From Gammaproteobacteria bacterium (lineage in GTDB: Bacteria; Pseudomonadota; Gammaproteobacteria; SZUA-140), in NCBI GenBank assembly GCA_026981935.1, contig JALSIC010000052.1, positions 2,571-66,570 of the forward strand: a stretch of 64,000 bases of DNA. The letters are read 5' to 3'. Of this stretch, positions 475-7,410 are shown one piece after another (position 1 is the stretch's first letter; each line of letters starts with the position of its first letter). The position numbers and the translations under genes are program-made. The notes beneath the pieces are model-generated. The model ran no database searches and was not told the DNA's origin. It saw nothing but the letters and a program-made list of their open reading frames with translations.

Positions 475-1522
475 GGATAGCAAAGAGATCAGTGGCTTGT
501 ATCTACAGCGTGCTGGTTTTATGCCTGGTGGACCAGTTCTGCTTTATTGTGTGGTGGTGGCAGTGAAGAAAAATAGGCTATCCGTTTCGCAATTACATGT
601 ACGCTCTTTTTTGCTTTATGCGCTGTACCGCCGTTTGCGGATTGTATGAATCTCTGATCTTCAGGCAAGGGCGCATTTTTCCATATCCAGCTTGTCTGTT
701 TTTGATAGAAAAGTCTTGATGATGTACTACTTCCTCCAAGAATAAGCTGAATACGCGGGTTTTTATTGAGAAGGCAAGACTTTTGGTGTTCAAAGCTCAT
801 TTTTTGCCTCAACATATTACTTTATAGATATTTTTTTATTTTAGAAAGCAAAATATATTGATTTGATTGATAAAATAACATTTATGGATTGTCTGGCTTT
901 GGGGGTGTGTGACTGAATTTTTGGAAATATGAAATTAAAACTTGGCACAAGATTACTCTCGTGAATGTTCGTAAATAATTGATGCTAAAATTCAAATTTA
1001 TAAATAATCATCAATATTTTGGGTAAATAAAAACAAGTCGTTTCATGCCGCCATATTTTTCATACTAAAGCACGAGGATGGATACATTATCCCTGTCGAA
1101 TTAAGCGTGATTACTGCCTAATTTGCCTTATACGACTGAGCCTGACTTATATACTGTAGAGTCTCATAGTTGAATGGACATGGTCCGACTGTTGACACGC
1201 CGGCTCGGTAGCCTGGATGAAGCGTTGCAAGAGCGCAATCCAGGAAACCAGCCAGGAAACCCCCACGCACGGATTACGTTCCACTCCATCTGGGCTACAC
1301 ATTATTGATGTGGACAATTATGAGTCCAGTAATAAGTCACATCTAATTACATGAATGACAATGTCAAATCTGGTGAAAAGGAATTTGATTGCTGAGCGGA
1401 ATGTATACAACATGGCCTATCGTAAGAGTCTGTCCCTTTTTCTGCTTTTTGCATGGGGGCAGTTATTCAGTATCTTCTCTTGCCGGTTTTCTGGACGGAT
1501 CTAAGCATTGGGTAACGCACAC

Positions 1523-3205
1523 ATGTATGAACTGATCTTCCCTATCATTGCCTTACCGTTTTTGTCAGCCATCGTGTTGCAGCTGATGGCGGATAAGATG
1601 AGGCGAAGCGTTGTATTGATCAGCGTGACTGTTGCTTGGATTACCCTTGTTCTGGCTGGATTTGCAACCTGGTCAGCGATAACTGGAGGAGGAGAGGTTC
1701 GCGAGATCGAGTTGCAGAGTGGCTGGGGAATTCTGAGGTTTGATTCTCTCGGGGTTCTGATGTGTCTGGTGATATCAGCCATCAGCCTGGTGGTCAGGAT
1801 CTATTCTCTTCGATACATGATCGAGGAGCCAGGCTATGTTCGATTTTTTACTTTGCTGGATCTGATGTCGGGCACGCTTTATCTTCTTGTGCTGTCAGGA
1901 GATCTGATAACGCTGCTTATCGCATGGCATTTAATCAGCGTGTGGTTATATTTTCTTCTGGGACATGACATGCGAAGCCAAACTGCATGGAGGTATGCAT
2001 TTTGGACCTGGATTACATATCGCATAGGGGACGTTCCACTCGTAATAGCTGCTATATTGCTTTATCAGGCATACGGCAGCTGGTCTCTGAGTACGATATT
2101 TGAAGGCCTTGCCAACCAGAACCAGATTGAAATGATCTTTTTCCTCCCTCTGCCCGAGGTGGTTGGAGGATTAATTGCGCTGTCTGCTTTTGCCCGCTCC
2201 GCGCAGTTTCTGCTTCATACTTGGCTACCTTATTCCATGGCAGGACCAACGCCGGTGTCCGCCCTCATGCACGCAGGCATTGTAAATGCTGGCGGCTTCC
2301 TCATTAACCGTTTTTCTCCTGTATTTGTGGAGACTGATCTGGTCCTTCACTGGGTATTCCTCGTTGGGTTGGTTACTGCCGTAATTGGATCTCTTCTCAT
2401 GCTTGTACAGAACGATATAAAAAAAGCATTAGGTTATTCGACAATGGGGCAGATGGGCTTCATGGTCATGGAATGCGGGCTGGGAGCATTTTCCCTGGCA
2501 GTCTTTCACCTGATCGCACATGGTTTGTTCAAGGGAACGCTTTTTCTCAGCGCTGGCGATGTAATTGGCAAGGCGCGACAGAACGATGGAGTACCTAGAG
2601 ATCAGCTCTATTCGTACATCGTTGAAAAAAACCCTGTCAAAAGCAGGATGCCTTGGCTGCTGATGGCTTTGCTTACACTATTGCTGCCGGTTACCATTTT
2701 ACTGCTGGCACATTGGATAGTGTCAGAGGACTTTTATCAGAAGCAAGGCGCCATCGTGCTCTTGTTCTTTGGCTGGGTAACTGGTGCGCAGCTTATTTTC
2801 GTGACCTATCGCATGCGTTCTCAGAATCTATGGCGTCTTTTCAGTCTAACTGTCGGTTCATTTGTTATTGTAATTGTTGGATACATATTGATAAGTCATG
2901 TCTTTGATCTGTACCTCTATCCTGATGAAGATTTCCGCAAACGCATCTATGAAGCAGCGTCAATTGACCTGCTCTGGTTCAGCATACTGATTGGTATCCT
3001 CACACTTGTAATTGTGTCAGGATGGGTTAGGACATATTACGTTGAGCGTAATTCCGGGCGACAAATGCATGAACAGATCGTTTCAAGGAAGACAACATAT
3101 GCGTTGATTGCAAACGAACTCTACATCAATGCCTTCTATGCTTATATGTCAAGAAAGATGGAAAAGCTCGCATTGCGGATTAATGCGTGGCTGAGGTGGC
3201 TATGA
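1523..3205 (+). CDS. dabB: DabB-like proton-translocating membrane subunit (NuoL/MnhA/ND5 family, PF00361)
   Basis: 565-aa polytopic membrane ORF. Motifs [67 protein letters not shown] and [22 protein letters not shown] match the antiporter-like NuoL/ND5 core. The ATG at 1523 is preferred over the track's TTG at 1508. Its stop overlaps the next start (TGGCTATGATATGC). Confidence 0.85.
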   Translation: [560 protein letters not shown]

Positions 3206-3206
3206 T

Positions 3207-6900: not shown

Positions 6901-7081
6901 GGAAAGTGTGAAAACTGCCATAGGGCGGGTTGCAAGCGTCAGAAAGCTTCTGCAAAACGAGTGGATTCACATGGCAGTTGTAGATCCAATATCTGGAGGT
7001 GTATATAGATATTGTGCTGGTGATTGGAAAGCGTATGACATTGGAGATCTGCATGCAGGTCGGGAGGCAGCTGCGATATGA
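3962..7081 (+). CDS. dabA: DabA-like inorganic carbon transporter subunit (DUF2309/UPF0753, PF10070), catalytic beta-CA-like partner of DabB
   Basis: 1039 aa. The N-terminal [20 protein letters not shown] is typical of DUF2309. MFCIDTRSE carries the Cys-x-Asp motif, and [24 protein letters not shown] carries a His followed by Cys 15 residues later; this matches the 4-residue metal-site pattern described for DabA. Starts and stops are coupled with the ORFs on both sides. Confidence 0.85.
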   Translation: [1039 protein letters not shown]

Positions 7082-7410
7082 ATGCAATAAAGTTTAATCA
7101 CCTGAAGAAGCTTGAGATCATCCTTGAGGGTGAATATAAGGAATTCGCGATTGACTTGCTGGACAGAGTAGGCGTAAAGGGTTACAGCATCATCAATAAT
7201 CTTTCCGGAAAAGGCAGTCATGGATTTCGCGACGGGCATATCATGTTCAATGAGGATGATCTTCTGATAATGATCATCGCTGCAGTGCCCGAAAAGCTCG
7301 TTGAGCCGATATTGCAAGGATTTTCACCGTTTTTCAAAGAGCATTCTGGTGTGGTTTTCGTTTCCGACATTCAGGTTACTCGGCTTGTCAAATTTGGCGG
7401 TGACGATTGA
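7078..7410 (+). CDS. PII-like (GlnB-fold) signalling protein, translationally coupled to dabA; possibly a carboxysome-associated CPII-like bicarbonate/adenylate sensor
   Basis: 110 aa. KKLEIILEGEYKEFAIDLLDRVGVKGYSIINNLSGKGSHG ... GVVFVSDIQVTRLVKF aligns by eye with the GlnB/PII pattern (KKIEAIIKPFKLDDV...GITGMTVTEVKGFGRQKG ... GKIFVFDVARVIRI). The ATG at 7078 overlaps the dabA stop (GATATGAATG). Confidence 0.65.
   Translation: MNAIKFNHLKKLEIILEGEYKEFAIDLLDRVGVKGYSIINNLSGKGSHGFRDGHIMFNEDDLLIMIIAAVPEKLVEPILQGFSPFFKEHSGVVFVSDIQVTRLVKFGGDD

Follow-up and report, generated by a model that had tools for sequence, protein, structure and literature searches.

Gene content and organization of the locus

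The 64,000-nt stretch of DNA analysed here (hereafter the window) opens with the 5′ part of csoS1D (1..474, − strand; N-terminal ~158 codons), which encodes a tandem-BMC alpha-carboxysome shell protein and continues beyond the window's left edge. It is followed by a DAB operon of four tightly packed genes on the + strand, dabB1 (1523..3205), dabC (3207..3965), dabA1 (3962..7081) and cpII (7078..7410). These coordinates agree with an earlier note on this DNA, made from the sequence alone, which had described four same-strand ORFs with overlapping stops and starts. The overlaps are present at the dabC/dabA and dabA/cpII junctions, an ATGA in each case, but not at the dabB/dabC junction, which reads TGAtATG with a 1-nt spacer. 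The same note began the first ORF at TTG 1508, which is in frame; ATG 1523, as called on contigs L001–L004, is the likelier start: alignments with many homologues begin at the first residue of the resulting 560-aa version.

The csoS1D assignment was made with the help of other contigs. L001 and L002, which carry an identical DabA, contain a 204-aa minus-strand gene with PF27545 (CsoS1D_N) and PF00936 that ends 868 and 754 nt, respectively, left of the window offset, and the translation of 1..474 begins with the same ten residues as CsoS1D of the relative L003 (83–91% identical). Directly upstream, L003 carries the genes for CsoS2, CsoSCA, CsoS4AB, CsoS1, CsoS1D and a ParA-like protein, and alpha-carboxysome genes are directly upstream in many other loci too. 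Looking leftwards for carboxysome genes, as the earlier note advised, therefore yields csoS1D within the window and the full cso set in L003, the contigs of the present genome ending close to the left edge of the window.

csoS1D and dabB diverge from an intergenic region of ~1.05 kb. An AT-rich conserved block (810..1070) retains long identical runs relative to L003 while the flanking intergenic sequence has diverged, and may represent a shared csoS1D/dabB promoter or regulator-binding region. A LysR gene lies two genes further left in L003, and a promoter scan of the region returned a number of sites not above chance. The region also holds a structured, MITE-like insertion of 186 nt with complementary termini (1149..1334), which is missing at the corresponding site of L003 and has a copy there at 3437..3620 on the opposite strand (84% identity). 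This insertion, with an RNA minimum free energy of −63.8 kcal/mol (z −3.6) and no match in an Rfam search, is not part of the DAB machinery. On the 3′ side of cpII, a hairpin with a T-rich tail (7803..7834, + strand; 9-bp stem with five GC pairs, from a consensus scan) weakly suggests a terminator, such sites in the region not exceeding the number expected by chance.

The product of dabB1 (560 aa), a NuoL/ND5-like and presumably proton-conducting membrane subunit, matches PF00361 (E 1.1e-48) and PF00662 (E 1e-10), and among PDB sequences NdhF/NuoL (E 1e-52 to 1e-43) and DabB2 (9rd0_B, E 2.4e-38). It contains a His-x3-His-x3-Lys motif (H329, H333, K337) together with H231, an Arg at the position of the NuoL/NdhF TM7 Lys in the PDB alignment and, as read from sequence, apparently a His at the TM5 Glu position. 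It resembles NdhF (6hum_F, E 1.2e-52). Cyanobacterial NDH-1MS/CupA CO2 uptake, in which CupA/ChpY and NdhD3/NdhF3 are part of an NDH-1 complex, was considered and rejected, because DabB scores 112.7 bits against a cutoff of 588.7 for TIGR01960 (ndhF3_CO2); a Pfam search of the four operon proteins found no match to a Cup family, the catalytic subunit belonging to PF10070 instead.

This catalytic subunit, encoded by dabA1 (1039 aa) and predicted to be cytosolic and beta-carbonic-anhydrase-like, matches PF10070 (DabA, formerly DUF2309) over profile positions 4–747 of 747 (E 2.7e-252, 839.9 bits) and DabA2 (9rd0_A) with E 1.7e-98. Its residues C465, D467, H723 and C738 align column for column with the Zn ligands C351, D353, H524 and C539 of the solved DabA2 (9rd0), in the beta-carbonic-anhydrase-like pattern of Cys-x-Asp and a Cys 15 residues after the His. 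It also carries GIAGFFG (487–493) and RPEWGL (854–859), motifs named in the DAB1 structure preprint (bioRxiv 10.64898/2026.05.01.722082).

cpII encodes a carboxysome-associated PII-like signalling protein of 110 aa with a match to PF00543 (P-II; E 4.5e-19), and adjoins an alpha-carboxysome gene, the csoS1D at 1..474. Its only PDB matches at E ≤ 0.001 are the entries of Thiomonas intermedia CPII (5D4N/5D4L), which align with residues 1–106 at E 6.7e-49, and sequence comparison identifies the gene as an ortholog of this crystallised protein, its close homology being to CPII and not to GlnB/GlnK. Profile searches, with Pfam hits far above threshold, bear out what the earlier note had read from motifs, namely PF00361 in the first ORF, DUF2309 in the third and a PII-like fourth gene. 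Its proposed Cys/Asp/His/Cys zinc site aligns exactly with the DabA2 ligands, and the three DabA peptides that it quoted are found at residues 30–40, 464–471 (FCIDTRSE) and 723–743.

The 252-aa membrane ORF between dabB and dabA matched no Pfam or NCBIfam family in profile searches, and no sequence in a PDB set that did not include the DAB1 structure. Its AF2 model (pLDDT 89.7) finds its best Foldseek matches in NuoM/ND4, with TM-scores of 0.82–0.86 relative to the query and ~0.45–0.49 relative to the target; a half NuoM/ND4 fold has been reported for DabC (bioRxiv 10.64898/2026.05.01.722082). Relatives of the gene were found in 196 species genomes, and homologues lie between dabB and dabA in every one of 80 recovered species-level genomes. 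These include Nitrococcus mobilis Nb-231 (L067), which is marked 'DabC present' in Supplementary Table 6 of the same preprint. R75 is the sole charged residue among the invariant ones in an 18-sequence family alignment, in keeping with a DabC that lacks the conserved charged residues of the proton path. DabC has figured as the third DAB1 gene since the work of Desmarais et al. (2018/2019); the 2026 DAB1 preprint names it, reports that function requires it and gives its cryo-EM structure (bioRxiv 10.64898/2026.05.01.722082). We regard the 252-aa ORF as DabC, its homology to DabC of Thermocrinis albus and Halothiobacillus neapolitanus being transitive and running via gene order, the listing of N. 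mobilis and the predicted fold.

Relationship to characterised DAB systems

The operon very probably specifies a vectorial carbonic anhydrase of DAB1 type (three-subunit DAC) together with an associated PII sensor, in keeping with the DAB-type inorganic-carbon uptake operon of the earlier note. The computed basis consists of family assignments, ligand alignment, DabC fold, synteny, purifying selection and composition. The lengths of DabA and DabB (1039/560 aa) fit DabA1 1046/DabB1 559 and not DabA2 827/DabB2 551. All four genes are under purifying selection (dN/dS 0.074 for dabB, 0.155 for dabC, 0.097 for dabA and 0.008 for cpII), so they are probably functional, as had been supposed.

The H. 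neapolitanus DAB1 is a DIC-accumulating complex of three subunits (Hneap_0909 DabB1, Hneap_0908 DabC and Hneap_0907 DabA1) whose genes have the matching order, with a DabA of ~1040 aa and a DabB of ~560 aa; it likewise adjoins an alpha-carboxysome locus and has a P-II gene in the cluster. Its genes, however, form part of an 11-gene operon that includes acRAF/cbbOQ, whereas the window holds a compact four-gene unit divergent from csoS1D. The T. albus DAB1, a DabA/B/C heterotrimer by cryo-EM (bioRxiv 10.64898/2026.05.01.722082), shares the DabA motifs E..DC beside the Zn Cys, RPEWGL and GI(A/G)GFFG, the DabB His-x3-His-x3-Lys helix and a half-NuoM DabC lacking a Pfam family, but has DabB and DabC fused ('DabBC') where the window has separate ORFs 1 nt apart. 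The H. neapolitanus DAB2 (PDB 9rd0) has the same Pfam families and an identical Zn ligand pattern, and its DabA aligns well over the C-terminal 345 residues (domain E 1.3e-76). In contrast, it lacks both DabC and a neighbouring PII, and its DabA falls ~200 aa short of the window DabA, whose residues ~317–453 and ~523–682 have no DabA2 counterpart in the alignment. DAB2-like pairs beside DAB1 in L030, L042, L055 and L077 showed no second DabC or PII match adjacent to them. CPII of T. intermedia K12 (PDB 5D4L/5D4N/5D4O/5D4P/5DRK/5DS7; Wheatley et al., 2016) aligns over its full length and has the matching genomic position, with no difference detected at sequence level, and Tint_0113 of this organism appears among the listed proteins as a DabA1 accompanied by DabC (bioRxiv 10.64898/2026.05.01.722082).

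A Na+/bicarbonate symporter with HCO3− as substrate and Na+ as coupling ion is very unlikely. Such a mode has been proposed for the S. aureus homologue MpsAB (summarised in PMC13144422), and DabB is a member of the Mrp/complex-I antiporters, whose ion specificity is unreadable from sequence. Nevertheless, DabA has every Zn ligand of the beta-carbonic-anhydrase type as well as the gating motifs RPEWGL and GIAGFFG of CO2-hydrating DABs, the studied DAB1 and DAB2 homologues use CO2 and are CCCP-sensitive, and the locus is carboxysome-linked, as in H. neapolitanus DAB1.

The earlier note went further and saw in the four-gene layout a candidate for a not-yet-characterised variant, in which a two-gene DAB would have gained the membrane ORF and PII as lineage-specific additions. 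The orphan status of the membrane ORF in Pfam, NCBIfam and PDB sequence searches and the two-gene composition of the best-known DAB (DAB2) speak for such a variant. It is nonetheless highly improbable and is refuted by literature and synteny: the two supposed additions are already published as DabC of DAB1 and as CPII, the dabB-dabC-dabA order is the norm in 80/80 recovered species genomes, and PII follows dabA in 70/70 loci long enough to show the position. The locus is an ordinary, intact copy of the already described DAB1 machine with a bicarbonate-sensing PII partner.

Proposed mechanism and role of CPII

Heterotrimer formation, proton coupling and CO2 as substrate are carried over from the literature on homologues. 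By this analogy, DabB1 would conduct protons as a NuoL-like channel, DabC would be a membrane partner resembling a truncated NuoM and probably structural rather than proton-conducting, and DabA1 would be a cytosolic Zn beta-carbonic-anhydrase-like enzyme docked on these two subunits. CO2 that enters the cell by diffusion would undergo one-way hydration to bicarbonate in the buried active site of DabA, with proton flow through DabB driving the hydration and remodelling the site, and the accumulated bicarbonate would feed the alpha-carboxysome encoded immediately upstream. CPII would act as a PII trimer that binds adenine nucleotides and bicarbonate and is co-translated from the same message, most likely adjusting DAB1 activity, or the CO2-concentrating mechanism (CCM) more widely, to the bicarbonate and energy state of the cell.

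Regulation of DAB1 by CPII is something that we infer from genomic linkage. That CPII is a dedicated stoichiometric partner, effectively a fourth DAB1 subunit, is a plausible suggestion that falls slightly short of an even chance; as such, it would dock on DabA1 and/or DabC and gate CO2 hydration by cytosolic bicarbonate and ADP/AMP. The invariable position after dabA, the ATGA overlap and the very low dN/dS of cpII fit this role. Bicarbonate-enhanced ADP/AMP binding is reported for the T. intermedia protein. The recent structure papers on DAB1 and DAB2 make no connection between CPII and DAB1, and PII is nowhere mentioned in the DAB1 structure preprint (bioRxiv 10.64898/2026.05.01.722082). 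In cyanobacterial SbtA/SbtB, a co-encoded PII-like protein can similarly gate uptake of Ci (bicarbonate) in response to adenine nucleotides; SbtA, however, belongs to a transporter family unrelated to DAB1, and SbtB–SbtA binding is demonstrated, whereas CPII–DAB1 binding is a possibility suggested by genomic linkage and by this analogy.

Composition and origin of the low-GC block

GC content is 0.461 in window positions 1..7850 versus 0.662 in 7851..64000, and GC3 is 0.46–0.51 in the four operon genes versus 0.70–0.90 in 11 core genes, so that the compositional distinctness claimed earlier holds. The switch, at ~7.9–8.0 kb, falls where a cytochrome c gene begins and lies near the hairpin at 7803..7834; it is abrupt, amounting to 20 points within ~200 nt, and the gene order across it is cpII, cytochrome c, DUF302, djlA, sspA and sspB. 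The low-GC block does not begin at 1508, as had been stated, but extends past the window's left end, where, on the model of L003, it would take in the full cso set.

An assembly or binning chimera, in which a carboxysome/DAB contig of a low-GC organism was joined to a high-GC core, would account for so sharp a jump in metagenome-derived assemblies but is barely conceivable, given that an ENA assembly, a Logan assembly built from another run and an NCBI 67-kb contig all have the identical junction, which is present also in the distinct relative GCA_054017855.1 (85–92% nucleotide identity). The foreign composition of the region, reproduced in independent assemblies, supports the horizontal acquisition proposed in the earlier note and points to a cso-DAB1-CPII island acquired by an uncultured gammaproteobacterium of ~66% GC. 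In more than 60 other DAB1 loci, the GC content of the DAB genes equals that of their flanks; the island is therefore unusual among DAB1 loci, suggesting a recent transfer, and this arrival in a GC-rich genome is the sole unusual feature of the locus. As a lesser reading, the block may be a complete CCM module that was recently mobilised and has not yet drifted to host composition. With its unadapted island, the lineage offers a good natural example of recent CCM-module transfer.

For annotation across the wider family, dabC is the appropriate name for the 252-aa ORF that many genomes carry without annotation between dabB and dabA, and CPII is that for the 'nitrogen regulatory P-II' downstream of dabA. 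The 80-genome comparative set, with its unbroken PII linkage, provides strong genomic ground for testing CPII as a regulator of DAB1.

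Operon structure and protein families

The operon comprises four forward-strand genes delimited by ORF calls, namely dabB (1523..3205, with an upstream in-frame start at 1508), ORF2 (3207..3965), dabA (3962..7081), and a PII gene (7078..7410). The most likely dabB start is ATG 1523 (560 aa): this start is called on L001 and L002 (contigs with identical DabA), on the relative L003 (GCA_054017855.1), and on L004, and many homologs align from residue 1 of the 560-aa version. An earlier note described all stops and starts as overlapping, which holds for ORF2/dabA and dabA/PII (both ATGA) and fails for dabB/ORF2 (TGAtATG), where a 1-nt spacer intervenes. 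The peptide motifs that it quoted were all found in the window proteins.

The HMM comparison proposed for the four proteins matched DabB to PF00361 (E 1.1e-48) plus PF00662, DabA to almost the entire PF10070 DabA profile (E 2.7e-252), and the PII protein to PF00543 P-II (E 4.5e-19), while ORF2 has no Pfam match. In NCBIfam, ORF2 and DabA gave no match, and DabB had NuoL/Mrp matches below threshold only. Among solved structures, DabA matches DabA2 of the two-gene Halothiobacillus neapolitanus DAB2 complex (9rd0_A, E 1.7e-98), and its C465, D467, H723, and C738 share alignment columns with the Zn ligands C351, D353, H524, and C539, placing the Cys/Asp/His/Cys residues singled out earlier at the metal-ligand positions. 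DabA also contains GIAGFFG, RPEWGL, and a second Cys set in an E..DC context, all emphasized in the T. albus DAB1 structure paper (bioRxiv 10.64898/2026.05.01.722082). DabB matches NdhF/NuoL chains in the PDB (E 1e-52 to 1e-43) and DabB2 (E 2.4e-38), and carries the His-x3-His-x3-Lys helix (H329/H333/K337). In the aligned structure, DabB R225 ("ARSAQ") occupies the position of the conserved TM7 Lys of NdhF, and H136 ("AWHLIS") is apparently at the position of the NuoL/NdhF TM5 Glu. At E ≤ 0.001, the PDB matches of the PII protein are confined to CPII, a carboxysome-associated PII protein from Thiomonas intermedia (5D4N/5D4L, E ~7e-49, residues 1-106).

Identification of ORF2 as DabC

A database search with ORF2 returned a small family of ~250-aa proteins without a Pfam domain. 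Scanning one genome per species yielded relatives in 196 genomes. The 80 retrieved come mostly from gammaproteobacterial MAGs (several with sulfur-oxidizer group labels) and also from Nitrococcus mobilis, Ca. Thiodiazotropha, Zetaproteobacteria, and some Verrucomicrobia. When the four proteins of the window were used as tblastn queries, the order dabB-ORF2-dabA appeared in all 80 loci, as far as the contigs extend, and a PII gene directly 3′ of dabA in each of the 70 loci with enough sequence. As described for H. neapolitanus (Desmarais et al.), DAB1 is a three-gene cluster downstream of the carboxysome operon in which an unknown protein is encoded between DabA1 (1046 aa) and DabB1 (559 aa); the cluster also holds a P-II gene. 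The 2026 DAB2 structure paper treats DAB1 as a three-subunit DAC (Hneap_0907, 0908, and 0909), and the third protein was named DabC in the 2026 DAB1 preprint (the T. albus paper), whose Supplementary Table 6 includes, among the DabA1 operons that have DabC, those of N. mobilis Nb-231 (retrieved here as L067), Thiohalophilus, and T. intermedia K12, from which CPII comes.

The AlphaFold model of ORF2 is confident (pLDDT 89.7, pTM 0.88), and structurally it is closest to NuoM/ND4 chains, which align over the entire query but over approximately half of their own length (TMq 0.82-0.86, TMt 0.45-0.49). The family alignment contains one invariant charged residue. No PDB sequence matched ORF2 even at E ≤ 1, and a DAB1 structure was evidently absent from the PDB copy searched. 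Hhalign of the family profile against the window DabB gave nothing (E 0.9); the kinship with antiporter-like subunits is seen at the fold level only. Synteny, the DAB1 literature and its listing of DabC operons, the predicted half-NuoM/ND4 fold, and the presence of just one invariant charged residue therefore identify ORF2 as DabC. Pfam matches, Zn-ligand alignment, and synteny all bear out the earlier identification of a DAB inorganic-carbon uptake operon. The suggestion of a richer, uncharacterized four-gene architecture does not stand: with DabC and CPII both in the literature and the gene order constant, the locus is a standard DAB1 + CPII layout of an already known type.

Genomic context and origin of the low-GC block

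Left of the window, contigs with identical DabA and the 83-91% identical relative L003 carry cso genes followed, after a ~1-kb intergenic region, by dabB-dabC-dabA-cpII. Contigs with the exact window sequence end within ~0.9 kb of its left edge, and L003 extends no further than csoS2, so that all of them stop short of the island's left boundary. The order left of dabB is CsoS2, CsoSCA, CsoS4A/B, two CsoS1, a ferritin-like protein, a small ORF, ParA-like, and LysR, then, on the opposite strand, NUDIX and CsoS1D. The carboxysome genes that the earlier note proposed to look for are thus present as an alpha-carboxysome set upstream in L003, and comparison with L001, L002, and L003 places the csoS1D start at window 1..474 (-). 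Many of the other loci repeat this cso-DAB1 arrangement.

Between the divergent csoS1D and dabB, an AT-rich block (~810..1070) is nearly identical in L003 although its surroundings have diverged, with LysR nearby in L003, and represents a candidate shared regulatory region. A consensus scan for promoters and terminators showed no enrichment relative to shuffles, and Rfam gave no match in the csoS1D-dabB intergenic region. The same region contains a 186-nt element (1149..1334) that has complementary termini and folds stably (MFE -63.8 kcal/mol, z -3.6), likewise without an Rfam match. In L003 it lies elsewhere in the island, at 3437..3620 on the opposite strand, where the ferritin-like gene and the small ORF flank it, and it resembles a small MITE-like mobile element. 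A 98-aa intergenic ORF (519..815, -), called as a 93-aa gene on L002 and not called on L001 or L003, has no family on record and is probably spurious.

Right of the operon are genes for cytochrome c, DUF302, djlA, sspA/B, RNase P RNA (16577..16937, +; class A, 332.7 bits), and secA. The ORF run within 17600..41224, where secA also lies, is presumably the dcw cell-division/cell-wall cluster, and a tRNA-Met is at 60023..60099 (+). Marked by RNase P RNA, tRNA-Met, dcw-like ORFs, and secA, the high-GC part is core chromosome. SecA matched MAGs labeled "Gammaproteobacteria bacterium", and its nearest named match, at 79%, is from Thiohalobacter sp. IOR34, which makes the host an uncultured gammaproteobacterium.

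GC content is 0.461 in window 1..7850 versus 0.662 in the remainder, and GC3 is 0.46-0.51 in the four operon genes versus 0.70-0.90 in eleven core genes, which upholds the reported compositional distinctness. The switch occurs at ~7.9-8.0 kb, at the beginning of the cytochrome c gene; the block does not start at 1508, where the earlier note placed it, and continues past the window's left end. An assembly chimera was dismissed as unlikely, because an ENA assembly, a Logan assembly from a different run, and an NCBI contig share an identical junction between cpII and cytochrome c, which is also conserved in L003. Values of dN/dS between the window and L003 (dabB 0.074, dabC 0.155, dabA 0.097, cpII 0.008) indicate that selection maintains all four genes.

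In 60+ other DAB1 loci, DAB GC equals flank GC (mean difference 0.003); in the window lineage it is 0.15-0.19 lower. The block thus seems to have been acquired comparatively recently from a donor of ~45% GC, in agreement with the horizontal transfer into a high-GC host suggested earlier. Among the retrieved loci, tblastn found no close donor, the top DabA match outside the lineage being 59% identical. Synonymous divergence from L003 reaches 0.63-1.0 for the island genes (1523..7410), against 0.20-0.21 for the adjacent core genes djlA and sspA (8921..10481) and 99% identity of SecA. This implies either that the island alleles predate the genome split, through recombination or separate acquisition, or that silent changes build up faster in low-GC genes.

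Predicted function and the role of CPII

By homology, DabB1 would conduct protons, DabC would buttress DabB1, and DabA1 would hydrate CO2 one-way to bicarbonate, supplying the adjacent carboxysome. Details of the coupling are drawn from the DAB1 and DAB2 structure papers of 2026 rather than from the window sequence. Four retrieved loci (L030, L042, L055, and L077) differ in carrying a DAB2-like dabB/dabA pair adjoining the DAB1-CPII cluster, with no second DabC or PII match beside the pair, and provide an internal contrast of both DAB types. T. intermedia CPII is reported to bind adenine nucleotides and bicarbonate. The invariable linkage of CPII to DAB1 suggests that CPII may regulate the DAB1 pump, and this relationship is the residual point of interest at the locus.
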